Shown: positions 4,009-63,403, numbered from the stretch's first letter. The stretch: DNA of 64,000 bases from an uncultured Chloroflexia bacterium (GCA_963822845.1 CAWGIY010000009.1:543631-607630); one strand, 5' to 3'. Notes: a model not told the origin generated them from the letters alone. Numbers and translations: made by a program.

Positions 4009-4673
4009 CTCGCCAGCTCCGACCAACGCTCCATCAGCAGGCCGATCCCCCGCCGCCAGAGCTCGACCCGCGCCGGATCGTTCAGCCAGGTCGACGCTCC
4101 CGACGGGTGCGGCAGGCACAGGACCGATGCACCCGATGCAGCCTCCCACATGAGCTCTCGGCCCACGAGGTCGTCGAGCCGCGCGTCAGGCCCGAACGCG
4201 AACCGATGGGCCGTGCCGCCGACCAGCAGCACGAGCCGCGGAGCGACGAGCCGGACCTCCTCGCGCAGCGTCGGCGCCCAGCGGGCGATCTCGGCCCGCG
4301 ACGGCGGGCGGTCGACCGACGATCCCGGCGCTCGACCGGGATAGCACTTGCCGACCGACGTGGCGTACCAGCGCCCGCGGAAGTCGTCCACGCCGATGCC
4401 GGCCGCGGCCAGCCAGCCGCACAGCCGCTTCCCGGCGTCCCAGGCAAAGGGCACGCCGGTCTCGATCTCGCGCCATCCGGGCGCCTGGCCGATGAGCATC
4501 GCGTCCTCGCTGCCGTCGCCGGAGAGCACGGGGTTCGCGCCGTCTTCGCAGTGCGGCATCGCGTCCTGGAGCGTCCGCAGCTCGGTTCCCGGCGGGGCGC
4601 GCCGCGGCTCCGGGACGAGCCACTCCCCGGTGTGGCGGAGCCGCTTCGGCTCCAGGGTCGCGAGGTCCGTCAC
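4005..4673 (-). CDS. Uracil-DNA glycosylase superfamily protein.
   Basis: Motif A (GQAPG, close to the family GE[AG]PG) and motif B (LPHPSGAS). GTG start overlaps the upstream gene's stop. Confidence 0.7.
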   Translation of the reverse strand: MTDLATLEPKRLRHTGEWLVPEPRRAPPGTELRTLQDAMPHCEDGANPVLSGDGSEDAMLIGQAPGWREIETGVPFAWDAGKRLCGWLAAAGIGVDDFRGRWYATSVGKCYPGRAPGSSVDRPPSRAEIARWAPTLREEVRLVAPRLVLLVGGTAHRFAFGPDARLDDLVGRELMWEAASGASVLCLPHPSGASTWLNDPARVELWRRGIGLLMERWSELAR

Positions 4674-5278
4674 GCGCCGGTGCGAAGGGCCTCGGCGGCC
4701 CGCAGGTCGTCGGCGATCGCGAGGCGCAGCATCCGACGCACGCCGTCGTGGTACGGGCCGGAAGCCTCGATCGCATCGGTCAGGGCATCGCGCGCCGCGT
4801 AGAGGCGGTCGACCGGGTCGCTCGCCACGGCTCCGGGCGCGGCATGCTCGAGGTCGCGGACGAAGGTCACGTCCTGGCGCTCGATCGCGTCGAGCAGCGG
4901 CGCGGCCGTCGAGGGATCCGCGACATCGAGGGCGGCCGCGAGCTCCTCGCGCGCGAGCTCCAGCCAGCGCAGCCAGGTGGCGAACTCCTCGTCGGACGGC
5001 GGCAGGTCGTCGAGTGTGAAGGCCGCGCGCCGCTCCTCGTTCGCCGCCGCGCGCTCGACCTCGTACCAGTTGTCGCCGACGAACGAGGGCACCGGCTCGC
5101 CGTTGGCCTTCAGCCAGGCGGTGAAGCGGCTGACCCGCATCGGCATGGCAGATGCGGCCTCGTCATCGGTCGCGGCAAAGACGGCGCAGCCCGGGAGCTC
5201 GGCAGCGTAGGCGCCGACGAGCCCCTGCCCGTCGACATCGGTCTCGATGAAGATGGCGTGCGGCATCGTGCCGGCCAT
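4670..5278 (-). CDS. Hypothetical protein with an N-terminal HicB/UPF0150-like fold and an unknown C-terminal domain.
   Basis: N-terminal pattern ...ELPGCAVFAATDDEA...WLKANGEPVP resembles HicB-family antitoxin-like domains. First gene of a three-gene cassette. Confidence 0.5.
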   Translation of the reverse strand: MAGTMPHAIFIETDVDGQGLVGAYAAELPGCAVFAATDDEAASAMPMRVSRFTAWLKANGEPVPSFVGDNWYEVERAAANEERRAAFTLDDLPPSDEEFATWLRWLELAREELAAALDVADPSTAAPLLDAIERQDVTFVRDLEHAAPGAVASDPVDRLYAARDALTDAIEASGPYHDGVRRMLRLAIADDLRAAEALRTGA

Positions 5279-5297
5279 CTAGGCTGCCCTCGTGTCT

Positions 5298-5321
5298 CGG
5301 CGTATATACGTATATACGCCG
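5298..5321. repeat. 24-bp perfect AT-rich palindrome CGGCGTATATACGTATATACGCCG. Likely the uvrB terminator and/or operator of the downstream cassette.
   Basis: Exact reverse-complement symmetry. It is 20 bp upstream of the 4670-5278 start and 14 bp downstream of the uvrB stop. Confidence 0.5.
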
Positions 5322-5334
5322 ATGCCTGCGGATG

Positions 5335-7476
5335 TCATGGGCGCCTCCGGCGTGGTGGGCGACGGCGGGAGCCCGCCGCGATGACGTTCGGACGCGTCTG
5401 GACGCTGAACACCTGGTCCGACTCGTTGCCGCGACGGCCGCCGCGGTCGCCGTCCACGGCCGCCGCGGCGTAGACGTCCGCCGGGATCGTGCCGGGGGCA
5501 GCGGCGAGCTCCTCGCGCAGGCGCCGCAGCTGGAGGACCTCGTCGCGCAGCGCGGCCGCGCGCTCGAACTCGAGGTTGCGCGCCGCCTCCTTCATCTGCG
5601 CCTCGAGGCGGCCCATCATCGCGGCGACCTCCTCCGGCTCCTTGCCCTCCAGCTCCAGCTCGGCACGCTGCTCGGCGACGCGGCGCAGGCCCTCGTGGAT
5701 GTCGCGGATCTCCTTCATCACCGTCTCGGGCGTGATGCCCTTCTCGGCGTTGTAGGCAACCTGCTTGGCGCGCCGCCGGTCCGTCTCGTCGATGGCCGCC
5801 CGCATCGAGTCGGTCACCCGGTCGGCGTACATGACGACATGGCCGCCGACGTTGCGCGCCGCCCGACCGATGACCTGGATGAGCGACCCGCCACTCCGCA
5901 GGAAGCCCTCCTTGTCCGCGTCGAGGATCGCGACGAGCGTCACCTCCGGCAGGTCGAGCCCCTCGCGCAGGAGGTTGATGCCGACGAGCACGTCGTAGAC
6001 GCCGAGGCGCAGGTCCCGGAGGATCTCGACGCGCTCGAGGGTGTCCACTTCCGAGTGGAGCCACTGCACCTTGATCCCGAGCTCGGCGAGGTAGTCGGCG
6101 AGGTCCTCGGCCATCTTCTTCGTGAGCGTCGTGACGAGCGCCCGCTCCCCGCGCTCGACGGTGGCCCGGATCTCGGCGATCAGGTCGTCGATCTGGCCGG
6201 CGGTGGGACGCACGGCGATCTGGGGATCGACGACGCCGGTCGGCCGGATGAACTGCTCCGCCACGCGGTCGGCGCGCTCGGTCTCGTACGGGCCTGGCGT
6301 CGCGCTCATGTAGACCACCTGGCTCATGTGGTCCTCGAACTCCTCGAACGTCAGCGGCCGGTTGTCGAGGGCCGATGGCAGGCGGAACCCGAAGTCGACG
6401 AGGATCTCCTTGCGGGTCCGGTCGTTCTTGTACATGCCGTGGACCTGCGGGATCGAGATGTGGCTCTCGTCGACGACGAGGAGGAAGTCGGTCGGGAAGT
6501 AGTCGATGAGCGTCCACGGCCGCTCGCCCTCCTCGCGGCCGGCGAGGTGGCGCGAGTAGTTCTCGATCCCGGAGCAGAAGCCGACCTCGCGCATCATCTC
6601 GAGGTCGAACTGGGTCCGCTGCTTCAGCCGTGCCGCCTCGAGGTCGCGACCCTGGTCGTTGAGCCAGCGGACGCGCACGTCGAGCTCCTCATCGATCTTG
6701 TCGATCGCGACGAGCAGCTTCTCGCGCGGCGTGACGTAGTGCGTGGCCGGGTAGAGGTTGACCTCCTGGCGCTCGGCCAGCACCTCGCCGGTGAGCTCGT
6801 CGATCTCGACGATCCGCTCGACCTCGTCACCGAAGAAGTCGACGCGCACGACGTACTCCCCGTGCGGCGGCTGCACCTCCAGCACGTCGCCGCGGACCCG
6901 GAACTTCGCCCGTCCGAGCGCGGCGTCGTTGCGCTGGTACTGGAGGTCGACGAGGTGGCGCAGGATCCCGTCGCGGCGATAGTGCCCGCCGCGCTTGAGC
7001 TGGACGACGGTCGCCCCGTAGTCGACCGGAGCTCCCAGCCCGTAGATGGCCGATACGGACGCCACGATCACGACGTCTCGACGCTCGAACAGCGCGCGCG
7101 TGGCGTTGTGGCGCAGCCGGTCGATCTCGTCGTTGCGGGACGAGTCCTTCTCGATGTACGTATCGGTCCGCGGGAGGTAGGCCTCCGGCTGGAAGTAGTC
7201 GTAGTAGCTCACGAAGTATTCGACCGCGTTCTCGGGGAAGAACTCCTTGAACTCCTGGTACAGCTGCGCGGCGAGCGTCTTGTTGTGGGCCATGACGAGC
7301 GTCGGCTTCTGCACCGCCTCGATCAGCTTGGCGGCGGTGAACGTCTTGCCGGTGCCGGTCGCGCCCAGCAGGACCTGGTGCTTCAGGCCGCGTCGGATGC
7401 CGTCAGTCAGCTCGGCGATCGCAGTCGGCTGATCGCCGGTCGGCTCGTAGGGGGCGTTGACCTTCAGGTCTGGCAT
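5335..7476 (-). CDS. uvrB: Excinuclease ABC subunit B (UvrB).
   Basis: 713 aa, helicase motifs (GATGTGKT) and the UvrB beta-hairpin region. Conserved over its full length. Confidence 0.97.
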
Positions 7477-7569
7477 GGGGACTCGATTCTAGCCGCCTCC
7501 ATCGGTCCCATCCGGAACCATCCAAGGGCCTATATCGGGAGGCTGCGCGCCGTTCCTACGATCGGCGCA

Positions 7570-8127
7570 ATGCCCATCCTTCGGCGTGCCCGAGCCGCTG
7601 GAGCCTCGGTGGCGGTCGCCTGGCCGCGCCGTTGGCCGGTTCGGCCTGCCGCGAACCAGCGTGGGCAGGCGATGGTCGAGTTCGCCGCTGTCGTGGTGCC
7701 GCTGATGATCATCCTGCTGGGGATCATCCAGTCCGGTTTCCTCTTCTCGGGCTACGTGGGGATCAGCAACGCCGCACGGGAGGGTGCCCGCGCAGGGACG
7801 ATCTACGAGTACGACTCGGCAGAGGGGCAGGGCCAGAACGACCTGCAGCGCTGCCAGGCGATCCTGGCGGCGACGCAGCAGTCCGTCGACGACGCGGTCC
7901 CAGGCGTCTTCACCGGTAGCTGCGCGACCGTGTTCGGTGGCGGTGATCTCGTCATCGCCTACCCGGACTCGGCGACGTGCACGAATTCGGCGCGAACGGG
8001 CTGCCAGGTCAGCGTCACCGTCACGTTCCGCCAGCCGGTCCTCGTCCCGCTCATCGGCGAGTTTTTCTCGACCGACGGGACGAACCGCATCCCGCTGAGC
8101 GCCGACGTGGTGATGGTCATCAATTGA
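7570..8127 (+). CDS. TadE-like Flp-pilus assembly protein.
   Basis: Canonical N-terminal RGQAMVEFAAVVVPLMIILLGIIQ (TadE/TadG-like motif). It is the 3' part of a long antisense-to-uvrB ORF; only this part is coding. Confidence 0.7.
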   Translation: MPILRRARAAGASVAVAWPRRWPVRPAANQRGQAMVEFAAVVVPLMIILLGIIQSGFLFSGYVGISNAAREGARAGTIYEYDSAEGQGQNDLQRCQAILAATQQSVDDAVPGVFTGSCATVFGGGDLVIAYPDSATCTNSARTGCQVSVTVTFRQPVLVPLIGEFFSTDGTNRIPLSADVVMVIN

Positions 8128-10049
8128 TGCGTAACTCGGAAGGCGGACAGGTCCTCATCATCGTGGCGCTCGGCCTCGTCGTCCTGCTCGGTGCCGCGGC
8201 GTTCACGATCGACCTCGGACGGCGCGATGCGGAGGAGCGGCACCTTCAAAACGCGGCGGACGCCGGCGCCCTGGCGGCGTGCAAGGCACTGGTCGACGGG
8301 GCGACCGACTCGAGCGCCCTCGCGACGGCCCGGGCGATCGCCACGACGAACCTGTCCGGCTCCCCCGCCGGCTCGAGCGCCGCGATCGCGACTGCCGGGG
8401 CGGAGGAGTACGTGTCGGGCTTTGCCGGGAATCCGTACCAGATGACGAACGGCGCCGTCATCGCGGATGACTCCGTCTTCGTTGCCATCGATTCGGACAT
8501 CGATACGACGATCGGTCGGGTCCTCGGGCGTGAGACGCTCGGAGCTCTGGGTCGGGCGCGGTGCGCGACCGAGGCCGATCCGGCCCTGCCGTTCATCATC
8601 CGTCGCTACCAGAACCCTCCCGGGCCGGGCGGCGGCTTCATCGACTTCCTCGCCACGGCGGCGACGAGCACGACCGGGGCGGTGGACACGACCGATCCGC
8701 GTGGATACGGCGGCCGGACGCCCGCCAACCTGGCCTTCCCGGGCGTGGAATTCCAGATGTACGGTCCGAGCACACAGGCCACGAACAACTCCTTCCGCGG
8801 CTTCATCGCGCTGGACGTCCGCGACTTCACCGGCGCCGCTTCGCGCCAGTACTACAACGGCGCGACGTCCACGATGAGCTCGAACACGCTCAAGGGGCAT
8901 CACGCCGCCTACATCACGAGCGGCTATCCCGGCCCGGCGATCCCACCGGTGCAGAACCCGCCGACCGGCGCCACGCAGGTCGGGATCATGAACGGGGTCA
9001 GCGCCGCCCACTCCACCGGGCCGTTCGACACGAAACACCAGGTCGGCGACCGCGTGATGTTCGCGGTCTACAACGGCACGGTGATGGCGATCCCGGACTT
9101 CTCGATTCAGCCACCGGTCGAGATCCAGGTCCCGACGACGACGTCGAGCCCGGTCGACGGGCCGACGTTCGAGGTGTCGCGCAACTCGGCGTTCAACAGC
9201 ACGGTCACGTTCACCCTGACCGGCGACGCCGGCGCCGCCGCCACGGGCCATCCGGAGTACAACATCGTCCCCGACCCTGCCGCGAGCACGCCGACGACGG
9301 GCCACATGAGCGGCGCTACCTTCTCACCGGACGCCTTCGTTCCGACGACGAACGGAACGGACGTGGACATCCTTGACCTCTCGACCGACGCCGTGGCCGA
9401 GGGCATCTACACGGTCTGGGTCGAAGGCGAGGCGGGGGCGCCGTACTTCCAGACTCGCCGGCAACCGATCCCGGTGCAGGTTGGTGACGTCGACCGCGAG
9501 TTCAGCCTTGCCGGATCGGTGCTGGACGGGGCGACGGAGACGCTCGGCGGGACGATCACCCTGCCGCTGCGCATCTCGACCGGCAGCGGCCCCAACGGGT
9601 GGGACGACGGCACCGGCACCGCGTCGGTGGTCGATCTCGCCTGGGACACCGATTCGCTGACGGATTGCAGCTTCAACCCGAAGCCCCTCGGTACCGCGAG
9701 CATCGCCTTCAGCCCGGCGAGCGTCACACCGACCACCGGGGTCGGGGCGTCCTCGAGCCTCACGATCCAGGCCGGTAGCCTCTCGTCAGGCTGCTACCTG
9801 CTCCGCCTCCGCGCCCAGGGCGTGAACGCCGACGGCCAGCCGGTCGTGCGGATCGAGCACGTCCAGTTCACCGTCGCCGGGACGACCGGACCGAGCGAGT
9901 ACGTCGACGTCATCGGCTTCGCGGTCTTCCAGATCACCGACATTCGCTCGAATAGCTTCAGCGGGCGGGCCATCACCGGCCTGTACGCGGACCCGAACAA
10001 CCTCGCCCTGCGCGCCGCCCAGCGGCCGCGCCTCATCCCCTGGAACTGA
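8127..10049 (+). CDS. Large TadG/TadE-like domain secreted protein of 640 aa, a putative pilus-associated or adhesin protein.
   Basis: ATG overlaps the TadE stop (TGATG). N-terminal MRNSEGGQVLIIVALGLVVLLGAAAFTIDLG is the Tad-like N-terminal domain. The remainder is Thr/Gly/Ser-rich beta-rich sequence, and no vWA motif was recognised. Confidence 0.7.
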   Translation: MRNSEGGQVLIIVALGLVVLLGAAAFTIDLGRRDAEERHLQNAADAGALAACKALVDGATDSSALATARAIATTNLSGSPAGSSAAIATAGAEEYVSGFAGNPYQMTNGAVIADDSVFVAIDSDIDTTIGRVLGRETLGALGRARCATEADPALPFIIRRYQNPPGPGGGFIDFLATAATSTTGAVDTTDPRGYGGRTPANLAFPGVEFQMYGPSTQATNNSFRGFIALDVRDFTGAASRQYYNGATSTMSSNTLKGHHAAYITSGYPGPAIPPVQNPPTGATQVGIMNGVSAAHSTGPFDTKHQVGDRVMFAVYNGTVMAIPDFSIQPPVEIQVPTTTSSPVDGPTFEVSRNSAFNSTVTFTLTGDAGAAATGHPEYNIVPDPAASTPTTGHMSGATFSPDAFVPTTNGTDVDILDLSTDAVAEGIYTVWVEGEAGAPYFQTRRQPIPVQVGDVDREFSLAGSVLDGATETLGGTITLPLRISTGSGPNGWDDGTGTASVVDLAWDTDSLTDCSFNPKPLGTASIAFSPASVTPTTGVGASSSLTIQAGSLSSGCYLLRLRAQGVNADGQPVVRIEHVQFTVAGTTGPSEYVDVIGFAVFQITDIRSNSFSGRAITGLYADPNNLALRAAQRPRLIPWN

Positions 10050-10064
10050 CGCAAGGAGCCCCGC

Positions 10065-10916
10065 GTGGAACTCGAGTATTCGGACAAGAACAGCCGGCGA
10101 TCGAAGGTCTACATCGCCGTGGGCGTCATCATCGCCCTCGTCGTTGCGGCGACCGTCTTCTTCGCCCTCCAGGCCTCGAGGCTCGCGCCGGCTGCGGACG
10201 TGGAGATGCGGACGGTCGTCGTGGCCGCGGCCGACATCGCAGCACGTATCCCGATCACCGAGGCCGATGTCACCACGCGAGAGCTCCCCGCGGACCCGAC
10301 CAACGCCAACGCCTTCACGAGCGTCGACGAGGCCATCGGCCGGGTCACCGGCATGCCGGTCGCGTCCGGCCAGCTCATCGGCCCGACGGACCTCGCGTCT
10401 ACAGCCGAGGGGATGACGTACTCGATCCTCGCCCCCGGCGAGGCATTCGACCCCGAGGGACCCGACTGGCGGGCGGTGAGCGTGAACGTCCCGGCCTCGA
10501 ACGCGGTCGGCGGCACGCTCGCCAGCGGACAGCTCGTCGACCTCATCGTGACGATGCCACTCAACCCCGAGATCGATGAGGAGGCGTCCGCCGACGAGGA
10601 GCCGCCCGCCGATGAGGATGCCGACGACGAAGGCGCGCTCATGTCGGGCCCGTCGACGAAGGTGACACTGCAGTCGCTGCCGATCCTGTTCCGCGACGGC
10701 GACATCTACATCCTGCGAGCTGACCTCGGGACCGCGGAGAAGATCGCCGAGCTCGTGGCCTCCGGCGGCCACTTCACGTTCGTACTCCGTCCCGAGCAGG
10801 ACGATCGGACGGCCGACACCGAGGGGTCGACGATCGACCAGCTCGTCGAGGAGTACGGGTTCCCGCTCCCGCGCGCGATCGAGGAGGACACCGAGTCGCC
10901 GGCGGCGGGGAACTAG
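10065..10916 (+). CDS. Flp pilus assembly protein CpaB/RcpC-like (SAF domain, N-terminal TM, acidic linker).
   Basis: GTG start 5 nt after the AAGGAG RBS. Domain order TM, SAF-like region, then C-terminal region, as in CpaB. Confidence 0.7.
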   Translation: MELEYSDKNSRRSKVYIAVGVIIALVVAATVFFALQASRLAPAADVEMRTVVVAAADIAARIPITEADVTTRELPADPTNANAFTSVDEAIGRVTGMPVASGQLIGPTDLASTAEGMTYSILAPGEAFDPEGPDWRAVSVNVPASNAVGGTLASGQLVDLIVTMPLNPEIDEEASADEEPPADEDADDEGALMSGPSTKVTLQSLPILFRDGDIYILRADLGTAEKIAELVASGGHFTFVLRPEQDDRTADTEGSTIDQLVEEYGFPLPRAIEEDTESPAAGN

Positions 10917-11485
10917 CGCGCCAAGAGCTTGGCGAGCGCCTCGTCGACCTGGCGCCGCGTCTCTTGCAGGTCCGCGGACCCGTCGATGACGACGTTCGCG
11001 GCGGCGAGCATCGCCTCCTGGGATGACTGGCTGGCGAGGCGCGCCCTCGCCGTCGCCTCGTCCATGCCGCGGGAAGCGGCCAGGCGGGCGATCGCATCGG
11101 CCTCGTCGCAGCGGACGACCCAGATCTCGTCACATCCGTCGGCGAGGGGCGACTCGAGGAGCTTGATGACCTCGACCACGACCGCCTCGACGCCGCCCTG
11201 CGCCAGCTCCGCCAGCCGTGCCCGAATGGCGCCGCGGACCCGAGGATGGAGGATCGCCTCGAGGTCGCGCAGAGCGTTCGGATCACTGAAGACGACCGCC
11301 GCCAGCTCCGCCGCCTCGTAGGTGCCGAAGCGAGCCTGGATCTCGGCGCGCGCGTCGGCATCGTTGTGGCGGATCTCGCGCGCGACGGCGTCGGCGTCGA
11401 CGGTCGCCACTCCGCGATCGCGCAGCATCCCGGCCACGGTGCTCTTCCCGCAGCCGATGTTTCCGGTCAGGCCGATCACCTTCAT
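10913..11485 (-). CDS. coaE: Dephospho-CoA kinase.
   Basis: P-loop GLTGNIGCGKST and CoaE-length protein. Start MKVIGLTG. Only the 3' 573 nt of the 10913-12883 ORF is genuine. Confidence 0.9.
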   Translation of the reverse strand: MKVIGLTGNIGCGKSTVAGMLRDRGVATVDADAVAREIRHNDADARAEIQARFGTYEAAELAAVVFSDPNALRDLEAILHPRVRGAIRARLAELAQGGVEAVVVEVIKLLESPLADGCDEIWVVRCDEADAIARLAASRGMDEATARARLASQSSQEAMLAAANVVIDGSADLQETRRQVDEALAKLLAR

Positions 11486-21055: not shown

Positions 21056-21142
21056 GCCGGGGTGGCGGAACCGGTAGACGCGTCGGTCTCAAACACCGAT
21101 GGGCGCAAGCCCGTGTGGGTTCGAGTCCCACCCCCGGCACCA
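21056..21142 (+). tRNA. tRNA-Leu (anticodon CAA) with a long variable arm and encoded CCA.
   Basis: 7-bp acceptor stem GCCGGGG/CCCCGGC, anticodon stem TCGGT/ACCGA with loop CTCAAAC, T-arm GTGGG-TTCGAGT-CCCAC. Confidence 0.85.
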
Positions 21143-39479: not shown

Positions 39480-42400
39480 CTAGGCGATCCGCTCCTCCGC
39501 ACCCGCCCGCAGCTCGACCGCCACCGGCACGCCGGCCGCCTTCACCAGCGTCTCGCCGAGCCGATCGTCCCAGCGGACGCCCTCGGCCAGGCGCAGCATC
39601 GTGGTCGTGCCGCGCACCGAGAGCGCCACGCGAATCGGTCCGGGCCGATCCCGCACGACGCCCTGGATCGACCGCACGATCTCGTGGAACTGCGACTCCG
39701 GGTAGCGGTCGATGAGCACCGCCACCATCGCGGCCGATCCCGCCGGCGCCGACTGGAGCGGCACCGAGTTCGTCGGCACCGGCGGCTCCTCCGCGGGCTC
39801 CGGCGCGCCGAGGTCCTCCGCCACGGGCACGGCAACTGGCGTGGGCGCAACCACCGGGATCGGCTCGCGGACCGATGCGCGACCGTTGCGCTCCCAGCGC
39901 CCGCGCGGCGCCAGCATTCGGTCGCGTTCCGCGCCGAACGCCTGAACCCCCATCCGCACCGCGTCGTCCCAGGCCCACACCGCCTCGCACAGGATCTGCG
40001 GCGCCTCGTCGCGGCGGTCGAGGCGGCCCGAGACGAGCACGATCGAGTCGTTGGACCAGGCCTGCGCGGTCTGCTCGTACACCTTCGGGAAGACGACGAC
40101 CTCGACGGAGCCGGTGAGGTCCTCGAGGGTCGCGACGAGCATCGTCGAGCCGGCGCGGGTGATGACGCGCCGCGACCCTGCGACGATCCCGCCCAGCGTG
40201 ACCTTCGTCTGATCGGCCTCCTCGGCCAGGTCGGCCACCTGCACGGTCACGTAGTCGGGCAGGTCGGCCTCCATCTCGCGCAGCGGATGGTCCGACAGGT
40301 ACAGACCGATGAGCTCCTTCTCCCAGCGCAGCCGCTCGCGCTTCGGGATCTCCTCGCCACCGCCGAGGAACGAGGTGCCGCCGCTCTCCGCCGGCATCGC
40401 GAAGAGGTCGAAGAGCGTCGACTGCCCCGCCGCCACGTCGCGCTGATGGCGCGACCCGTTCTCGAGCGCAGCGTCCAAGGCTTCCAGCAACGCGCCCGCG
40501 GTCCCCAGCGACGCCATCGCGTTGGCCTTGATCAGCGACTCCAACACCCGACGGTTGAGCACGTGGAGGTCGACCCGCCGGCAGAAGTCGTCGAGCGACA
40601 AGAACGGCCCGGGCTCCGCTCCCCCGTCGCGGATGGCGGCGATCGCGTCGACCGCGCCCTCGCCGACGTTCTTGATCGCAGCCAGGCCGAAGCGGATTGC
40701 CTCGGGCGCGCCAGAGGCATCGGTCTCGACCGCGAAGAGGGCCAGCGACTTCTGCACGTCCGGCGGACGGACCTCGATCCCGAGCCGGCGGCACTCGGCG
40801 ATGACCGCGGCGACCTTCTCGGCGCGCTCGCGGAAGCCGTTGAGGACCGCGGTCATGAACTCGATCGGGTAGTTCGCCTTCAGGTAGGCCGTCTGGTAGG
40901 CGATGAGCCCGTAGCAGGTCGCGTGGGCCTTGTTGAAGCCGTATCGAGCGAAGGGCTCGAACTCGGCGAAGACCTTGTCGACGATGTGCGGCGGGATGCC
41001 CTTCTTCTTCGCGCCGGCCTTGAACTTCGCCTCGTGCTGGCGGAGGACGTCCTCCTTCTTCTTGCGGATCGCGTAGCAGAGGTTGTCCGCCTCGGGGCCG
41101 GTGTAATCGGCCATGGCGATCGCCGCGGTCATGATGTCTTCCTGGTAGACGAAGATCCCGTACGTGTCCTTGAGCGCCGGCTCGAGCGCCGGATGCAGGT
41201 AGGACACCGGCTCCTCGCCGTGCTTGCGGCGAATGTAGGCGGGGATGTTCGCCATCGGTCCGGGGCGGAAGAGGGCGACCATGGCGGCCAGGTCGCGCAC
41301 CTCGGTCGGCTTGAGCTCGCGGACGTATCGGCGCATCCCGGAGCCCTCCAGCTGGAAGACCCCCATCGTGTCGCCGTGGCCGAGCAGCTCGAACGTCTTC
41401 TTGTCGTCGAGCGGCAGCGTGTCGACGTCCAGCCTGACGCCTCGGTGCTTCTCCACCAGGTCGATGGCATCGGCCAGGATCGTCAGGTTGATGAGGCCCA
41501 GGAAGTCGAACTTCAGGAGGCCGAGCGCCTCGCAGGCGTGCATCTCGAACTGGGTCATCGTCGTGCGGCCGTCGGTCGCGCGCTGGAGCGGCATGATCTC
41601 GGTCAGCGGCTCTCGCGAGATCACGATCCCGGCCGCATGCGTGGAGGCGTGCCTGGACACCCCCTCGAGCTGCTTCGCGATGCCGATGAGCTTGTCGACC
41701 CGGTCGTCCCCCGCCATCAGCTCGCGCAGCTGCGGGGAGGTCTCGACGGCGCGGTCGAGCGAGATGTTCAGCTCCAGCGGGACCGCCTTCGCGACGCGAT
41801 CCGCCTCGGCGTAGGTGAGGCCCATGGCGCGGCCGACGTCGCGGATGGCCGCCTTCGCGCCCGAGCGTCCCGAAGGTGATGATCTGCGCCACCCGGTCGT
41901 CGCCGTACTTCTGCGTGACGTACTCGATGACCTCGTCCCGGCGGCTGTCCTGGAAGTCGATGTCGATGTCCGGCATCGTCACCCGGTCGGGGTTGAGGAA
42001 GCGCTCGAAGGGCAGGCCGTACTCGAGCGGGTCGACCGGCGTGATGCCGAGTGAGTAGGTGACGATCGAGCCCGGCGCGCTCCCCCGGCAGGTCGTCATG
42101 ATCCCCCGCTCGCGGGCGAAGCGGATGAAGTCGGCCACGATCAGGAAGTAGCTGCTGTACCCCATCCGATCGATGATTCCCAATTCGTAATCGAGCCGGT
42201 TACGAATCTCATCGGTAAGCGTCTGGTAACGCTCCAGTAATCCGCGATCGCACTCCTTGCGCAGCCAGGACGCATCGGTCTCGCCGGATGGCACCTCGAA
42301 GTGCGGGCAGGCGCAGCCCCTCGAAGTCCAGCGACACGTTGCACTGCTCGGCGATGACGAGCGTGTTGTCGAAGGCCTCGGGCAGCTCGCCGTTGAAGAG

Positions 42401-43168
42401 GCGGCGCATGTCGGCGGCGGGCTTCAGGTAGAACTCGTTGTTCTCGAAGCGCATCCGCCCCGGCGTGTCGAGGTTGGACGCGGTCTGGATGCAGACGAGG
42501 AGGTCGTGCGCCTCGTACTGCTCCGGGTGGGTGTAGTGCGTGTCGTTCGTCGCCAGCAGCGGGATGTTCTGCTTTCGCGCCAGCTCCACCAGCTGCGGGT
42601 GGAGCCGCGCCTGGTCGTCGATCCCGTGCTCCTGGATCTCGATGTAGAAGTTCCCGTCGCCCAGGATGGACCGATAGCTGTCGGCGGCCTCTGCCGCTCC
42701 CTGTTCGTCACCCTGCGCCAGCCGTTTCAGCACCTCCCCGCCGAGGCAGGCTGAGGTACCGATGAGCCCCTGGGAATGCTTCGCCAGCAGCTCCTTGTCG
42801 ATCCGCGGCTTGTAGTAGTAGCCGTCGAGGTGCGCGGCGGTCGTCAGCGCCAGGAGGTTGCGGTAGCCGACGTCGTCCTTCGCCAGCAGGATCATGTGGT
42901 GGTAGTCGGCGTCGGCCTTGCCCTCCTTCTGGGTCATCCCGCGAGGGCTGATGTAGGCCTCGAGCCCGAAGATCGGCTTGATGCCCGCTCTCTTGGCGGC
43001 GGCGGCGAACTCGATCGTGCCGTACATGCTGCCGTGATCGGTCAGCGCCAGGGCCGTCATGCCCTGGTCCGCGACGCGCTGCGTCATCTCGCCGGTGCGG
43101 CTCAGCCCGTCAAGAAGGCTGAATTCCGAGTGGACATGGAGGTGGCAGAACCCCCCGGGTTCAGCCAT
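39480..43168 (-). CDS. dnaE: DNA polymerase III alpha subunit (DnaE), interrupted by two apparent frameshifts (about 42298 in a C homopolymer, and about 41850).
   Basis: PHP domain (HLHVHSEFSLLDG) in one frame, palm/fingers in a second and the remainder in a third. At 42298 the observed ctgcccgcacttc versus the expected ctgccgcacttc restores LDFEGLRLPHFEVPSGETD. Confidence 0.9.
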
Positions 43169-43299
43169 GTTCTCGCGGCCGTCGTGATGATCGGAGCATC
43201 GATGAAGACGTCAGAGAACGCGCGGCTGCCACCGTTCCGAGGATACGGACTGACTCTCGCCATCGAAGGACGAAATTGCGCATCGGGGATCAGTCAGCC

Positions 43300-57256: not shown

Positions 57257-57281
57257 GGGCAGGTCCGCTGCTGTCACCAGT

Positions 57282-57299
57282 TATATCAGTAGTGATATA
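57282..57299. promoter_or_regulatory. AT-rich dyad TATATCA-GTAG-TGATATA in the promoter region upstream of the cobalamin riboswitch.
   Basis: Perfect 7-bp inverted repeat. Shares the TATATC/GATATA arms with the site at 53031-53050. Confidence 0.35.
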
Positions 57300-57477
57300 T
57301 CCCGCGACACCAACGAAGGCACGGGCCGCCGCTCGTACGACAACTCGATCCAGGAGTGGGGCAACAAGGAGCCTGTTCGAGACGCTTCCGCAGCGCGTCG
57401 ACCTGGAGCAGACCGATCTTCTGCGAGGCCGGCGGCGTCGCCCACGTCTCGTACCGCGTCATTCGATAGCGCGCGGC

Positions 57478-57672
57478 TGGTAGAGTCGGGCCAACAACAC
57501 GACGCGACCCGGTGCAGGGGAAGTCGGTCAAAGGCCGACGCTGACCCGCAGCCGTAGGCCGCCGGGACGAAGGTCCCGCGGCGAGCCGGAATGCCTGGCC
57601 GGGAAGCTTCGCTCCACCCCTCGTCGCGGTTCGCGAGGCGGAGCCGGCATCGATCCCGCGCCTCGCGCAACC
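57478..57672 (+). ncRNA. Cobalamin (B12) riboswitch with a downstream hairpin CGCGAGGCG-N16-CGCCTCGCG (expression platform).
   Basis: Conserved core CAGGGGAAGUCGGUCAAAGGCCGACGCUGACCCGCAGCCGUAGG matches the E. coli btuB leader element AGGGAAUCCAGUGCGAAUCUGGAGCUGACGCGCAGCGGUAAGG. A GGGAAG-containing B12-box-like segment follows. Confidence 0.75.
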
Positions 57673-57722
57673 ATCGATCCTGGCGGCCCGCGGACCCGAC
57701 GGACCGAAAGGAAGACGGCTCG

Positions 57723-58922
57723 ATGTCGGACCTCTCCATCCAGCCCGCATCGCGGATTGTGCGGGCCTGGACCCTCGTCCTCGTGGTCCTCGCGTTCATG
57801 CTCACCGCCGTGGCCGCCCCATCGGTGCGCGCCGGCGGATCCACGACCACCGATCCAGGCGACGCCGCCGGCGGCTGGATCGCCCAGCAGGTCGAGACCG
57901 ATGCGACCCTCGGTGTCGGTTCGCTGGCGGATGCCATCTTCGCCTTCGCCGCGACCGGTGTCGGCCAGGCCGCCGCCGCCGATGCTCTTGCCCGCATCGA
58001 GGCCGGTCTCGAGGCGTTCGTCTCGGACGGGACGAACCTGCGCCCCGGGGCGCTGGGCAAGGCCATCCTTGCGGTCAGCGTCCAGGGTGGCAACGTGAAC
58101 AGCTTCGGCGGGCGCGACCTCGAGGCCGACCTCCGCGGCCTGCTGGTCACGTCGGGGCCGGACACCGGCCGCTTCGGGTCCGCCACCGTCTTCGACCAGA
58201 CGATCGCGGTGCTCGCCCTGGCCCGGACCAGCGGTGGCGTGCCGGCCAGTGCCGGAGACTGGTTGGCCGCCGCGCAATGCCCGAGCGGCGAGTACCAGTG
58301 GGACGGGTCCTGCCCGGCCGGCCCTGGCCTCGAGGATCCGGACACCACCGCGCTGGCGCTCCAGGCGCTGCTGGCTGCCGGCGAGACGGCCGCCGCGGCC
58401 GGATCGACGACCTGGCTCCTGGACCTCCAGGCCAGTGACGGTTCGCTCGCCTCCTTCGGCACCCCGAACACGAACAGCACCGGCGTCGCGGGCCAGGCGC
58501 TGCGTGCCGCCGGCGAGACCGCCGCCGCCGACGCGGCCGCGGCCTTCGTCGTCTCCCTCCAGCTCGGCTGCGACGCCGATCCCGGCACGATCGGCGCGAT
58601 CGCCTGGTCGGTTGCCGATCCGGGCTTCCTCATCTTCTCGACGCCGCAGGCCGTCCTCGCGCTCGGCGCGCCGCCGCTCGACACGCTGAGCGCGGCCGGC
58701 GCATCAACGGACGCGCCGGCGCTCGAGTGCGCGGTCACCGGACCGCCCGCGACGGCAACACCGTCCCCCACGCCGACGGCCTCGCCCGGCGCCGGGGGCG
58801 CGCTGCCCGACACCGCGTCCGGTGCGGGTGACGCGGCGGGACTGCTCGCGACGCTTGCGGGCGGGATGCTCGTCGCTGGCGGTGTCGTGGCCATCCGCCG
58901 GAAGGTCGGAGCCCGGTCGTGA
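57723..58922 (+). CDS. Cell-surface prenyltransferase/squalene-oxidase-repeat (alpha/alpha-toroid) protein with signal peptide and a C-terminal LPDTAS sorting-signal-like motif, TM and RRK tail.
   Basis: Repeated QxxDGS[WL]-type terpenoid-cyclase repeats. AAGGAAG RBS. First gene after the riboswitch. Confidence 0.75.
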   Translation: MSDLSIQPASRIVRAWTLVLVVLAFMLTAVAAPSVRAGGSTTTDPGDAAGGWIAQQVETDATLGVGSLADAIFAFAATGVGQAAAADALARIEAGLEAFVSDGTNLRPGALGKAILAVSVQGGNVNSFGGRDLEADLRGLLVTSGPDTGRFGSATVFDQTIAVLALARTSGGVPASAGDWLAAAQCPSGEYQWDGSCPAGPGLEDPDTTALALQALLAAGETAAAAGSTTWLLDLQASDGSLASFGTPNTNSTGVAGQALRAAGETAAADAAAAFVVSLQLGCDADPGTIGAIAWSVADPGFLIFSTPQAVLALGAPPLDTLSAAGASTDAPALECAVTGPPATATPSPTPTASPGAGGALPDTASGAGDAAGLLATLAGGMLVAGGVVAIRRKVGARS

Positions 58923-59828
58923 CCGATGGCGCCGGCCGAGCCCTGCTCGGCCGGCGAGCCCTCCCCTTCGTCGCGGCCCTCCTGCTCGCGGTCGCGGCGC
59001 TCGGTGCGCCTGCCGAGGCACGGGCATGGACCGCGGGGGCGTGCCCGACGACCACGAGCGGCGTGACGGTCGTCGTCGACTTCGGCGCCCTCGGCGCCGG
59101 GACGGTCGTTCGTTGCGCACCAGGGGACCCGGCCACCGGGTTCGCGGCCCTCGCGGGTGCCGGCTTCTCGATCGAGCAGGTCAGCAACGTGCCGGGCTTC
59201 CTGTGCCGCATCGACGGCCGGCCCGGCGCGAGCCAGGAGACGTGCGTCAACACGCCGCCGGCGTCCGCGTACTGGGTGTACTGGCACGCGCCGCGCGGCG
59301 GAAGCTGGACCTACAGCTCGTCGGGGGCCGCCACCCGCAACCCTTCACCCGGCACCGTCGAGGGCTGGTCGTTCTCCGGCCCCGGCGGCGTGACGCCACC
59401 CGGCGTGCCGCCTCCTCCCCCGCCGGCGGCTCCGAAGCCGACGCCCACGCCACGCCCGCCGGCGCCCGCGCCCACCGCGCCGGACGCACCGGCGCCCACG
59501 AGCCGGCCCGCGGGCGCAACGGCCGCCCCCACGCCGCGGGCGGTCACCCCGGAGCCGACGGCGACTGGGCTCACCGAAGGCGTCAGCGCGCCCGTCGGCC
59601 ACGCCCCTGAGTCGCCCGACGGCCTCAGCCTCCGCGAGCGCGGCGACGTCGGAGCCATCTGCGTCGCCCTCCCCGTCGGATGCCGTGACCGCTGCGGCGA
59701 GTGCCGCGCCGGCTCCTCCGGCCGTCCCGCTCGGCACGGCCGCGGGCGTGGCGATCGCGGTGGCGGTCGGGAGCGCGGCCGCGATCATCGTGCGGCGCCG
59801 TGCGGCGGGCGCGGATGGAGGGCCGTGA
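58919..59828 (+). CDS. DUF4430-domain surface protein with Pro-rich linker and C-terminal TM anchor; one +1 frameshift near 59600.
   Basis: GTGA start overlap with the upstream gene. C-terminal ...GVAIAVAVGSAAAIIVRRRAAG anchor becomes readable only in the shifted frame. Confidence 0.7.
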
Positions 59829-60963
59829 GTTGAGCACGCACGACCTCCGACCGGCCCGCACGCTGCACCCCGGTGCCTGGTGGCTGTGGGCGCTCGGCCT
59901 CGCGATCGTCGCGAGCCACACGACGAACCCGCTGCTGCTCGGCCTGATCATCGGCGTCGCCGCGCTCGTGGTCGCCGCGCGACGCGAGGACGCGCCGTGG
60001 GCGCGCGCGTTCCGCATGTACCTCTACCTCGGCGCAGCGATCGTGGTCATCCGGGTCGGCTTCCGCATCCTGTTCGGGGGCGAGTTCGGCACGAACGTCC
60101 TCTTCTCACTGCCCGAGGCCGCACTGCCCGAGTGGGCGGCCGGCATCCGCATCGGCGGCGAGGTCACGGCCGAGAGCGTCCTCGCGGCCTTCGTCGACGG
60201 CCTGCGGCTGGCGACGATCGTCATCTGCTTCGGCGCCGCGAACAGCCTTGCCAACCCCGGGCGCCTGCTGCGCCTGGCGCCGAATGCCCTGTACGAGGCC
60301 GGCGCCGCGGTCACCGTGGCGATGAGCCTCGCCCCGCAGCTGGCGGAGAGCGTGATCCGCGTCGGCCGGGCCCGCCGCGTCCGCGGCTCGGTCGCGGGAG
60401 GTCGCCGATCGGTGCCCGGCATCCTCCTGCCGGTGCTCCAGGACGCGCTCGACCGATCCCTCTCGCTCGCGGCCTCGATGGATGCCCGGGGCTACGGCCG
60501 ATCCGGCGCCGAGCCGGCCGCCCGTCGCCGAGTGACCGCGGCGCTCCTCATCGTCGGCCTGTTCGGCGTCGCGATCGGCCTCTATGGCGTGCTCGACGCG
60601 ACGGCCGCGATCCCGCTGGCGGCGCCGATCATGGCCGGTGGCGCGGCGTTGCTGGTCGGCGGCATGGTGGCCGCTGGGCGCCGCGTCCAACGCACGCGCT
60701 ACCGCCCCGATCCGTGGGGCCTGTCCGAGTGGCTGGTCACGGCGTGCGGGGCGCTCGCGGTCACCTCGGTCATGCTCGGTGCGACCCTCGATCCGGCCTC
60801 GCTGCACATGTCCCTCGCGCCGATCTCGTGGCCGGGGCTTGCGGTCGTCCCGACCATCGGTGTGCTCGTCGCGGCGACGCCGGCCTGGATCGTGCCGCCG
60901 CCGATTTCGAGGGCGGCCAGACGGACCTCGGCCGCCGGTGCGACCTCGGGAGCTCGACCGTGA
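59815..60963 (+). CDS. Energy-coupling-factor transporter transmembrane component (EcfT/CbiQ family).
   Basis: Polytopic membrane protein with CbiQ-like conserved regions. ATG overlaps the upstream gene end. Confidence 0.8.
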   Translation: MEGRELSTHDLRPARTLHPGAWWLWALGLAIVASHTTNPLLLGLIIGVAALVVAARREDAPWARAFRMYLYLGAAIVVIRVGFRILFGGEFGTNVLFSLPEAALPEWAAGIRIGGEVTAESVLAAFVDGLRLATIVICFGAANSLANPGRLLRLAPNALYEAGAAVTVAMSLAPQLAESVIRVGRARRVRGSVAGGRRSVPGILLPVLQDALDRSLSLAASMDARGYGRSGAEPAARRRVTAALLIVGLFGVAIGLYGVLDATAAIPLAAPIMAGGAALLVGGMVAAGRRVQRTRYRPDPWGLSEWLVTACGALAVTSVMLGATLDPASLHMSLAPISWPGLAVVPTIGVLVAATPAWIVPPPISRAARRTSAAGATSGARP

Positions 60964-62570
60964 TCCAGTTCCACGGCGTCTCGCTGACCTACCCGGAGGC
61001 ATCGGCTCCGACGTTGCGTGACGTGGAGCTGGCCGTCGAGGAGGGCAGCCTCTGCCTCGTGGCCGGGCGCACTGGCGCCGGCAAGACGACCCTGCTGCGG
61101 CTCGTCAACGGCCTCGTCCCCCACTTCAGCGGCGGCCTCCTCACCGGCCGCGTGACCGTCGGCGGCCGCGACACGCGCGACCATCCGCCGCGCGAGCTGG
61201 CCGACGTCGTCGGGTCGGTCGCGCAGGACCCCCTTCACGGGTTCGTGACCGACAGCGTGGAGGAAGAGCTCGCCTACGGCATGGAGCAGCTCGGCGTCGA
61301 CCCCGCCACGATGCGCCGGCGCGTGGAGGAGACGCTCGACCTCCTGGGAATCGCCGACCTGCGCGACCGATCGCTCCGCAGCCTCTCCGGCGGGCAGCAG
61401 CAGCGCGTCGCGATCGGTTCGGTGCTCGCAGCCGGGCCACGCGTCCTCATCCTCGACGAGCCCACCTCGGCGTTGGACCCGCCCGCCGCGGAGGAGGTCC
61501 TCGCCGCCGTCCTGCGACTCGTCCACGACCTGGGGCTCACGGTCCTGCTCGCCGAGCACCGGATGGAGCGCGCCGTCGGCTACGCCGACCGCATCGTCAC
61601 CGTCCATGGCGACGGCACGGTCACCGACGGACCGCCCGCCGCGGAGCTCGAGCGGCTGGAGCTCGTCCCGCCCGTCGTCGAGCTGGGCCGGATGGCGGGG
61701 TGGTCCCCGCTGCCGCTCACCGTTCGCGACGCCCGCGCGAGCGCCGGGTCGCTGCGGACGAGGCTCGCCGAGGTCGCGCCGGCGGATCGTGCTGCGGAGC
61801 CGACGGACACGATCGCCCTTCGTGCCGAGCGGCTGACGGTGACGTACGGGCCGGTCACCGCCGTGCGCGACGTCACGCTCGAGCTGGCGCGCGGGGCGGT
61901 GGCGGTGCTCATGGGCCGCAACGGAGCGGGCAAGTCGTCGCTGCTGTGGGCGTTGCAGGGATCGGGACCGCGACGCTCGGGCAGCGTCCGGGTCGAGGGC
62001 CTCGATCCAACCGTTGGGGGCGCTGCGACCAAGGGACTGGTCGGCCTCGTCCCGCAGACCGCGGCCGACCTGCTCTACCACGACACGGTCGACGCGGAGT
62101 GTCAGCAGTCCGACCGTGACTGGCAGGTCCGTCCGGGGACGACTCGCGACCTGCTGGCGCGGATCGGCAGAGACGTCGACCCGGCAATCCACCCCCGGGA
62201 CCTGTCCGAGGGCCAGAGGCTGGCGCTCGTCCTCGCGATTCAGCTCGCGGGATCGCCGAAGGTCGTCCTGCTCGATGAGCCGACGCGCGGCCTCGACTAC
62301 CCGGCCAAGGCGTCACTGGTCGATGTCCTTCGCGGCCTTGCCGGCGCCGGCCACGCCATCCTCGTCTCGACCCACGATGTCGAGCTGGCCGCGTCGCTCG
62401 CCGATCGCGTCATCGTGATGGCCGGCGGAGAGATCGTCGCCGACGGCACCGCGGTTGAAGTGCTGGCCGCCTCGCCGGCGTTCGCGCCCCAGGTCGCGAA
62501 GATCCTCGGCCCGCCATGGCTCACCGTCGACGGCGTCCGTCGAGCCCTCGCTCTCGGGGGCGCGGCATGA
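60960..62570 (+). CDS. Fused duplicated ECF transporter ATPase (EcfA-EcfA').
   Basis: Two complete ABC cassettes (GRTGAGKTT/LSGGQQQRV/LILDEPTSALD and GRNGAGKSS/LSEGQRL/VLLDEPTRGLD). GTGA start overlap. Confidence 0.9.
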   Translation: MIQFHGVSLTYPEASAPTLRDVELAVEEGSLCLVAGRTGAGKTTLLRLVNGLVPHFSGGLLTGRVTVGGRDTRDHPPRELADVVGSVAQDPLHGFVTDSVEEELAYGMEQLGVDPATMRRRVEETLDLLGIADLRDRSLRSLSGGQQQRVAIGSVLAAGPRVLILDEPTSALDPPAAEEVLAAVLRLVHDLGLTVLLAEHRMERAVGYADRIVTVHGDGTVTDGPPAAELERLELVPPVVELGRMAGWSPLPLTVRDARASAGSLRTRLAEVAPADRAAEPTDTIALRAERLTVTYGPVTAVRDVTLELARGAVAVLMGRNGAGKSSLLWALQGSGPRRSGSVRVEGLDPTVGGAATKGLVGLVPQTAADLLYHDTVDAECQQSDRDWQVRPGTTRDLLARIGRDVDPAIHPRDLSEGQRLALVLAIQLAGSPKVVLLDEPTRGLDYPAKASLVDVLRGLAGAGHAILVSTHDVELAASLADRVIVMAGGEIVADGTAVEVLAASPAFAPQVAKILGPPWLTVDGVRRALALGGAA

Positions 62571-63403
62571 CCGCATTGCCGGCGCGCGCGACGGCCGTGC
62601 CCGTCGCCGCGCGACCGTGGCTCGTCCTGGCCATCGGTTCGGCCGTGGGGGTCATGGCATTCTGCTGGCCCTTGATCGTGTCGCCCGGCCCGGCTGGCGC
62701 GCCGCGGATCGACAGCCCGCTGCTGTTCGTCGCGATACTGCCGATCATCGTCGCGACCCTCGTCATCGAGCTGTCGGCCGGTCGCATGGACGCCAAGGCC
62801 ATCGCCATGCTCGGCGTCCTCGCAGCCCTGGGTGCGGCGCTGCGCCCGCTCGGTGCCGGCACCGCCGGGGTCGAGACGGTGTTCGTCCTGCTCGTCCTCG
62901 GCGGGCGCGCGTTCGGACCGGGGTTCGGCTTCGTGCTGGGCCCGGTCACGCTCTTCGCATCGTCGCTGCTCACCGGTGGCGTCGGGCCGTGGCTGCCGTT
63001 CCAGATGCTCGCCGCCGGCTGGGTCGGCCTCGGCGCCGGCCTCCTCCCGCGGGCACGGGGCAAGCGCGAGGGCCTCCTGCTCGCGGCGTACGGCGCCGCC
63101 GCCGCCTTCGGCTATGGCCTCGCCATGAACCTGTGGTTCTGGCCGTTCGCCGCCGGTCTCGATACGGCGCTCTCGCTCGTCCCGGGTGATCCGATCCTCG
63201 ACAACCTCGGCCGGTTCCTGCTGTTCACCCTCGCGACGTCAATGGGCTGGGACCTCGGCCGCGCGATCACCACGATCGTGCTGCTGGCCGTCCTCGGCCC
63301 GACGGTCCTGGGAGCCCTTCGCCGTGCCGGCCGGCGCGCGGCGTTCGGCGCGTCAGCGCAGTTCGCCACGCGGGACGCCGCGGAAGGGGTCAGCCCTCCG
63401 TAG
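62567..63403 (+). CDS. ECF transporter substrate-specific (S) component.
   Basis: Small six-TM protein. ATGA overlap with the ATPase gene. Confidence 0.7.
   Translation: MTALPARATAVPVAARPWLVLAIGSAVGVMAFCWPLIVSPGPAGAPRIDSPLLFVAILPIIVATLVIELSAGRMDAKAIAMLGVLAALGAALRPLGAGTAGVETVFVLLVLGGRAFGPGFGFVLGPVTLFASSLLTGGVGPWLPFQMLAAGWVGLGAGLLPRARGKREGLLLAAYGAAAAFGYGLAMNLWFWPFAAGLDTALSLVPGDPILDNLGRFLLFTLATSMGWDLGRAITTIVLLAVLGPTVLGALRRAGRRAAFGASAQFATRDAAEGVSPP

Follow-up and report, generated by a model that had tools for sequence, protein, structure and literature searches.

What is brought into the cell by an operon that lies behind a cobalamin riboswitch and encodes two exported proteins next to an energy-coupling factor (ECF) transporter? 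The question is raised by positions 57478-63403 of a 64,000-nucleotide (nt) stretch of DNA from an uncultured Chloroflexia bacterium (GCA_963822845.1 CAWGIY010000009.1:543631-607630; hereafter the window), for which an original prediction, made from the sequence alone, had proposed that two surface proteins resembling the halves of transcobalamin feed vitamin B12 to an ECF importer. To our knowledge, B12 acquisition by monoderm soil bacteria is poorly known, the few proven importers being BtuCDF, ECF-CbrT and BacA, with BtuM as a predicted one. The answer that we consider probable is that the operon captures corrinoids at the cell surface and imports them at the expense of ATP, cobinamide or a particular cobamide being included among the possible cargoes. 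A more specific version, in which the first two gene products (G1 and G2) would form a two-chain "bacterial transcobalamin" that clamps the corrinoid between a toroid and a beta-grasp and hands it over to the ECF S component, is held more tentatively, at slightly less than an even chance.

Results

A cobalamin riboswitch followed by five genes

The riboswitch and the five genes behind it are a real arrangement and not a chance pattern. The elements are:

57493-57617, plus strand: cobalamin riboswitch aptamer (RF00174; cmscan, 37.0 bits)
57618-57722, plus strand: leader or expression platform; long GC-rich hairpin; ribosome-binding site AAAGGAAG at 57707-57714
57723-58922, plus strand: G1, predicted alpha/alpha-toroid surface protein, secreted, 399 amino acids (aa)
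58919-59828, plus strand: G2, predicted beta-grasp surface protein, secreted, similar to the transcobalamin beta domain (SLBB)
59815-60963, plus strand: EcfT (CbiQ-like), transmembrane coupling component, 382 aa; Pfam CbiQ
60960-62570, plus strand: fused EcfA-EcfA' double ATPase, 536 aa; Pfam ABC_tran, twice
62567-63403, plus strand: ECF S component, the substrate-specific membrane subunit, 278 aa; Pfam ECF_trnsprt, PF12822

An Rfam scan of the whole window gave two families above threshold, one of them RF00174, whose match exceeds the gathering score of 31.5 (E = 9.1e-6) and covers the complete model (positions 1-189). The riboswitch had been placed at 57478-57672, an interval that takes in the aptamer and part of the leader, and its presence is therefore confirmed. 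The aptamer is compact, measuring 125 nt, with the 62-nt P6 extension of the model represented by 17 nt. It ends 105 nt before the start of G1, on the same strand, and the ribosome-binding site lies 8 nt upstream of the G1 ATG. A consensus scan of the leader found no intrinsic (T-run) terminator and no sigma-70 promoter; the minimum free energy fold has a long GC-rich hairpin after the aptamer, with a z-score of only -2.1. Since the leader lacks a terminator, control is probably exerted by occlusion of the ribosome-binding site, that is, on translation, or by Rho-dependent termination.

Compact classes of cobalamin riboswitch prefer methyl- or aquo-cobalamin, and the short aptamers seen here are reminiscent of them. 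Relatives of the operon also carry short ones, among them those of Salinispora vitiensis (locus L013, 4495-4574 and 5316-5388) and of locus L031 (5145-5217), some of which match only positions 45-169 of the model.

The five genes are co-directional, as had been proposed, and the proposed overlaps can be read in the sequence: GTGA is shared at the G1/G2 and EcfT/EcfA-A' junctions and ATGA at the junction of EcfA-A' with the S component, and G2 and EcfT overlap by 14 nt. The one part of that description that does not stand concerns G2, which is not a single open frame in the window. An opposite-strand open reading frame of 668 aa (57281-59287, minus strand) extends over the riboswitch and G1 into the beginning of G2. 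It looks like a shadow frame of high-GC DNA rather than a gene; on the plus strand, third-position GC lies between 0.84 and 0.93 over the body of G1 and reaches 0.92 within the initial 500 nt of G2, which fits real genes.

Conservation of the riboswitch and the gene order

A pattern scan with one genome per species retrieved at least 591 relatives of G2, and 78 loci were kept for comparison. Their hosts are Chloroflexota (Limnocylindrales, Chloroflexia and Thermomicrobiales) and many Actinomycetota, including Micromonospora, Salinispora, Streptomyces, Embleya, Kribbella, Dactylosporangium and Acidimicrobiia. Synteny was determined by tblastn with the five window proteins. The genes for EcfT, EcfA-A' and the S component were found downstream of the G2 homolog in 59 of the 67 loci with enough sequence, and a G1 homolog is present in 67 of all 78 loci, lying directly upstream of G2 in 50 of them; in loci of the Streptomyces type, G1 comes after the S component. 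The riboswitch recurs together with the genes: RF00174 was found in 18 of 20 related loci scanned, in Chloroflexota as well as Actinomycetota, and in nearly all cases it stands directly in front of a G1 or G2 homolog.

The association also holds where parts of the operon are multiplied. In Dactylosporangium roseum (L034, 3580-11338) two G1-G2 pairs stand in tandem before one set of transporter genes, with RF00174 preceding each pair, and the two-pair layout is repeated in most Micromonospora loci. The S. vitiensis locus (4495-11445) contains two RF00174 elements, one before a solitary extra G2 and the other before the G1-G2 pair beside the transporter genes. Exact-sequence look-ups of G1 and of the S component returned no recorded match. 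A 98%-identical relative of the window operon, L001, comes from a metagenome-assembled genome ("uncultured Chloroflexia bacterium MFD02360.bin.1.60") that holds a second copy of the operon (L010, about 5464-11262), 60-66% identical and complete with riboswitch, G1, G2, EcfT, EcfA-A' and S component, which suggests two systems of different specificity.

A dedicated ECF transporter

The last three genes had been read as EcfT, a fused double EcfA and an S component, and Pfam and NCBIfam matches, together with ATPase and coupling motifs, support each of these identifications. EcfT matches Pfam CbiQ (E = 1.1e-4) with 22.3 bits, just below the gathering score of 25, and has two Ala-Arg-x motifs, of the kind that marks EcfT coupling helices (GRARR at residue 186 and DARG at 224). 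The fused ATPase matches ABC_tran twice (E = 9e-48) and has the Walker A and Walker B motifs twice each, along with the signatures LSGGQ and LSEGQ; its best NCBIfam models are those of the ECF ATPases TIGR04521 and TIGR04520, with 259 and 257 bits, scores under equivalog cutoffs that are set for single-domain proteins. The S component scores 34.2 bits against PF12822 (gathering score 30.7) and shows a mean column identity of 63% over 23 loci. Judged by these sequence matches, the transporter parts are complete and form a dedicated (group I) ECF module.

Could such a module, under B12 control, be a CbiMNQO-type importer of cobalt (or nickel) for de novo cobalamin synthesis, with the surface proteins being accessory or unrelated? 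Cobalamin riboswitches control cobalt transporters, and commonly so, as well as B12-independent isozymes (PMC3766115), and in the window EcfT matches the Pfam family called "CbiQ, cobalt transport protein" while the ATPase matches cbiO models. However, CbiQ and CbiO are merely generic names of EcfT and EcfA, CbiM and CbiN are absent, and the S component falls into the vitamin-type ECF_trnsprt family. Moreover, the two large surface proteins, which resemble corrinoid binders and are conserved, co-translated and even fused, would be needless for the transport of a metal ion. We thus regard a metal-ion importer as very improbable.

G1, a predicted toroid protein of the cell surface

Signal peptides and conserved cysteines are found in the families of both exported proteins. 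In G1 a signal peptide precedes an alpha6/alpha6 barrel, and a Pro/Thr linker joins the barrel to an LPDTA motif near the C-terminus, which is followed by a hydrophobic segment and a basic tail. Its AlphaFold model, based on an alignment of 32 homologs (mean pLDDT 85, core >95), starts with a signal helix; the barrel is made of twelve helices, the Pro/Thr linker is disordered, and the chain ends in a hydrophobic helix. In this predicted structure the barrel can be superposed on the alpha domains of transcobalamin, intrinsic factor and haptocorrin, and human transcobalamin ranks fourth among the Foldseek matches. At the sequence level, G1 alone has a weak match to Pfam SQHop_cyclase_C (E = 0.04), a family matched by 16 of the 32 G1-family members, and the profile of the family matches the repeats of squalene-hopene cyclase (1gsz) with E = 1.5e-20. 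The predicted structure, the family profile and the LPDTA-type C-terminus agree with the earlier description of G1 as an alpha/alpha-toroid with a surface anchor. The nearest NCBIfam family is SCO2321, below its cutoff.

The anchor reads LPNTA or LPPTD in close relatives and LAxTG or LPATG in actinobacterial ones, and others have SLH domains. As LPxTG, LPxTA and LAxTG are all sortase recognition motifs, attachment of G1 to the cell wall is likely.

The same matches invite a different reading, in which G1 is an extracellular enzyme that processes terpenoids or glycans and has no functional coupling to the transporter beside it. Both in sequence and in structure its best matches come from class II terpene cyclases, squalene-hopene cyclase among them, and the alpha/alpha-toroid fold is common to many glycoside hydrolases. 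Yet the DxDD motif of class II cyclases is not kept: the aligned segment in G1 is DPDTT, and the third Asp is never retained in the family or in fused relatives. D205, D207 and T209 are each conserved to at least 90%, and in relatives DxD continues with T, S, G or A. G1 also consists of one secreted domain rather than a beta-gamma didomain. Its connection with G2 is close, with an overlap of 4 nt in the window, linkage in most loci and fusion in several proteins. An enzymatic role without coupling to transport is hence extremely improbable. The prenyltransferase/squalene-oxidase-type repeats of the G1 family indicate common fold ancestry, not common enzyme activity.

G2, a beta-grasp protein resembling the transcobalamin beta domain

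G2 is composed of a signal peptide, a beta-grasp domain of ~110 aa with four conserved cysteines, a Pro-rich linker and a C-terminal membrane anchor. Three of the cysteines (C66, C96 and C109) never vary in the family, and the fourth, C42, is conserved to at least 90%. Two disulfides are likely in the domain, and the motif TPPAxAYWxYW is common to the family. The structures closest to the G2 model include the human transcobalamin beta domain (score 9.6), haptocorrin (9.4), intrinsic factor (9.0) and bovine transcobalamin (8.9). The bacterial structure among the five best matches is presumably that of a DUF4430-type protein. After these five comes RnfH, a generic beta-grasp, at 6.2. In the model a beta-hairpin (85-87/95-98) directly follows a helix (74-80), and a hairpin inserted after the helix is a hallmark of the transcobalamin-like SLBB clade and a main contact to B12 (Burroughs et al. 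2007, PMC1796856). Together with the nearest structures, the surface signals, the toroid partner and the CbiO/CbiQ neighbours, the modelled hairpin places G2 in this clade. The predicted structures of G1 and G2 thus resemble the alpha and beta domains of transcobalamin, respectively, which agrees with the proposal that the two folds are split over two genes.

G2 had further been described as a membrane-anchored DUF4430 protein. Here the resemblance persists at the level of the fold only; DUF4430 as a family assignment was ruled out by searches with its hidden Markov model, and the anchor is out of frame in the window. In InterPro that family (PF14478) goes by the name "Transcobalamin-like, C-terminal domain". 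Homologs of G2 carry PF28005, and the nearest NCBIfam family is SCO2322, below its cutoff; a literature search on SCO2321-SCO2325 found nothing relevant, and a search of the G2 profile against PDB sequences gave matches to the low-complexity linker only. Several G2 homologs from Streptomyces and Micromonospora (P0067, P0083, P0110 and others) bear the public label "flagellar hook-length control protein FliK", probably in error and owing to the Pro-rich linker.

A frameshift in the window copy of G2

The start (58919) and the end (59828) of G2 lie in different frames. Comparison with the 98%-identical locus L001 revealed one extra base near 59564, which puts the C-terminal membrane anchor out of frame. 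When this base is removed, a G2 of 302 aa results, whose C-terminus, ...PAVPLGTAAGVAIAVAVGSAAAIIVRRRAAG (PLGT, a hydrophobic stretch and RRR), matches the anchor seen in P0001 and other intact relatives. The extra base leaves the globular domain unaffected. The extra base is either an assembly indel or a real mutation that inactivates the protein or removes its anchor. Elsewhere in the window, DnaE (DNA polymerase III alpha) seems to be split into two open reading frames, 39480-41978 and 42209-43210 (both minus strand), with the PHP domain in one and the NTPase, finger, HHH and OB regions in the other. The assembly may therefore contain more indel errors, which would make an artefact in G2 more likely.

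Toroid and beta-grasp fused in single chains

A search with the G2-family profile through 1.84 billion cluster representatives returned 3,506 clusters (50% identity) at E<=1e-3, of which the best 150 were listed, all of them close family. The matches listed include clean single-chain fusions: toroid followed by SLBB in P0341; SLBB followed by toroid in P0266, P0271, P0244 and P0367; SLBB, toroid and SLBB in P0241; and toroid, SLBB, SLBB and CWB2 cell-wall-binding repeats in P0328. Additional elements in some fused proteins are a second beta-grasp, a further toroid, CWB2 wall-binding repeats or immunoglobulin-like domains, and the surface-tethering signals of relatives are LPxTA, LAxTG, SLH or CWB2. 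P0244, one of the fused proteins, matches PF01122, the Pfam family "Eukaryotic cobalamin-binding protein", below threshold, with 21 bits where the gathering score is 25 (E = 1.8e-4). Gene fusion and tight gene linkage argue that the toroid and beta-grasp modules act as one unit. P0226 (675 aa) was rejected as a further G1-G2 fusion; it has stretches that look out of frame and is most likely an artefact, a gene call that runs through frameshifts.

Complete or incomplete corrinoids

Corrinoid import leaves room for a cargo other than complete cobalamin, namely a building block of B12 or a subclass of cobamides (cobinamide, a lower-ligand base or a substrate for pseudo-B12 remodelling). Many of the actinomycetes that carry the cluster are B12 producers. 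Several genomes have two or three divergent G1-G2 pairs, which suggest different specificities, and cobinamide-binding haptocorrin (4kkj) is among the best matches of both the G1 and the G2 model. Cobinamide is also carried by ECF-CbrT (PMC5997447), and Burroughs et al. left open "B12 or its precursors" (PMC1796856). However, a sandwich of toroid and beta-grasp would be unnecessary for so small a molecule as a free lower-ligand base. A precursor cargo would refine rather than contradict corrinoid import, and the data do not separate complete from incomplete corrinoids; as an explanation in its own right, excluding complete cobalamin, we find it unlikely.

Discussion

Comparison with described systems

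In 2007 Burroughs, Balaji, Iyer & Aravind described bacterial transcobalamin-like SLBB proteins, secreted or anchored in the Gram-positive manner, and predicted that these scavenge B12 or precursors of it. Animal transcobalamin, which holds one B12 sandwiched between its toroid and its beta-grasp, was proposed to derive from them (PMC1796856). The operon studied here shares with that clade a secreted or wall-anchored beta-grasp with the hairpin insert, a toroid that is paired or fused in either order, paralogous copies within operons, and a CbiO-like ATPase and CbiQ-like membrane protein as neighbours. It differs in several respects. The clade of the 2007 survey came from low-GC Gram-positives, planctomycetes and some euryarchaea, whereas this locus is from Chloroflexota and has many relatives in Actinomycetota. 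Its beta-grasp is undetected by the DUF4430 model and has two likely disulfides. Finally, the word "riboswitch" is absent from that paper (PMC1796856), while a riboswitch is near-universal in the present family.

The closest counterpart in architecture is the lsa1836-1840 cluster of Lactobacillus sakei (Verplaetse et al., bioRxiv 10.1101/864751), which encodes an S component, a fused EcfA-A', EcfT, a secreted protein similar to the transcobalamin beta domain (Lsa1839) and a secreted protein similar to the alpha domain (Lsa1840), and whose authors propose that the two secreted proteins hand the substrate over to the S component. The two systems were compared by architecture only: by its gene numbering, the L. 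sakei cluster has the transporter first (lsa1836-1838), then the beta-like and alpha-like proteins, whereas here the order is alpha-like, beta-like, EcfT, EcfA-A' and S component. Unlike in the present family, no riboswitch has been described for it, and its reported substrate, from genetics and docking, is heme.

This raises the alternative that the surface pair and S component of our operon capture heme or another tetrapyrrole rather than corrinoids. Deletion of the five-part L. sakei cluster affected intracellular heme readouts (bioRxiv 10.1101/864751), and ECF heme transporters do exist (LhaSTA, PMC7299338). On the other hand, heme binding by Lsa1839 and Lsa1840 was addressed by docking only (bioRxiv 10.1101/864751), hemin is not accepted by ECF-CbrT (PMC5997447), and corrinoid binders account for all of the best structural matches to G2. 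A heme importer would, moreover, have no reason to be under the cobalamin riboswitch that precedes almost all of the loci scanned, and this near-universal control is the strongest available argument for a corrinoid over a heme cargo. We therefore judge heme import to be distinctly improbable.

Import of B12 and cobinamide by an ECF transporter has been proven for ECF-CbrT of Lactobacillus delbrueckii (Santos et al. 2018, PMC5997447). As with our operon, that system is an ATP-driven vitamin importer of the ECF type predicted from a B12-related context, and it combines an S component with an EcfT/EcfA/EcfA' module. CbrT, however, uses a shared ECF module and no extracellular capture proteins, whereas the present operon has its own EcfT and fused EcfA-A'. 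Differences from mammalian transcobalamin, intrinsic factor and haptocorrin are larger. Those carriers are one chain each, whereas here two genes are involved, although fused bacterial relatives exist; sequence identity to them is only 14-18%; and the bacterial proteins are surface-tethered and would feed an ABC-type importer, while the mammalian ones serve an endocytosis receptor.

It follows that the locus is a divergent member of a kind that has already been described and is biochemically unproven, and that the concept itself is not new. The idea is older than the original prediction assumed, being already present in the 2007 survey and in the L. sakei work. The present analysis adds a high-GC branch, large and divergent, that occurs in Chloroflexota and Actinomycetota and escapes the DUF4430 model; it also adds the near-universal riboswitch control and the fused relatives within this branch.

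A possible route for corrinoids and its weak points

As we picture it, the operon would serve as a dedicated group I ECF importer of corrinoids, be it vitamin B12, other cobamides or cobinamide. With sufficient B12 inside the cell, the cobalamin riboswitch would shut the operon, and with scarce B12 the genes would be expressed. Extracellular vitamin would then be caught by the exported pair, G1 being tethered to the wall or membrane through its LPxTA-type sorting signal, and G2, the second half of the pair, being held to the membrane by an anchor at the end of a long Pro-rich stalk. By analogy with the transcobalamin sandwich, in which one B12 is held between the same two folds, a G1-G2 heterodimer may bind the corrinoid jointly. 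The pair would pass it to the S component, which EcfT and EcfA-A' would topple with the expenditure of ATP.

Several observations weigh against this picture. Concerning the cargo, the riboswitch indicates a B12-related role and not necessarily B12 as the transported substrate, since such riboswitches control other genes too (PMC3766115). The only experimentally studied system of the same architecture, that of L. sakei, was reported as a heme importer, and no experimental demonstration that a bacterial member binds B12 turned up in the literature searched. As to the exported proteins, PF14478 gave no match to G2 (E<=0.1) or to any of 34 family members (E<=10), and PF01122 was matched by none of the 32 G1-family members at E<=1. 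Class II terpene cyclases, and not transcobalamin, are structurally closest to G1, so that the G1 fold alone is unspecific. The window copy of G2 may be impaired if its frameshift is real. Lastly, neither the S component alone nor a 23-sequence profile found CbrT or any other solved S component among all PDB chains (E<=10), which we take to include the deposited crystal structure of ECF-CbrT. S components are, however, notoriously divergent, and the missing similarity to CbrT therefore does not exclude the same substrate.

Implications

The family is very common in Chloroflexota and Actinomycetota, where its members are labelled "hypothetical" or, mistakenly, FliK, and the riboswitch ties it to B12 at almost every locus examined. 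Were corrinoid binding by the surface pair to be demonstrated, this would be the first biochemical proof of the 2007 prediction of a bacterial forerunner of transcobalamin; it would also show that an ECF transporter is able to use extracellular capture proteins, and help to settle the question of heme versus B12 for the related L. sakei system.

Should the two-chain reading hold, the operon would encode an ECF importer assisted by binding proteins, in a class that is otherwise defined by having no extracytoplasmic binding protein, and its relay from wall to membrane would resemble the Isd heme relay. The family, large, previously unrecognised and widespread in Chloroflexota and antibiotic-producing Actinomycetota, could in that case be the main B12 route in these phyla of soil, and could form a deep branch of the lineage leading to the animal B12 carriers.

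Other features of the window

The neighbouring genes in the window give no B12 context; their products are a glyoxalase-like protein, RibD_C proteins, regulators of the HTH and PadR types, and proteins of DNA repair and replication. A tRNA gene of 84 nt with a long variable arm, unrelated to the operon, lies at 21056-21139 on the plus strand (59 bits).

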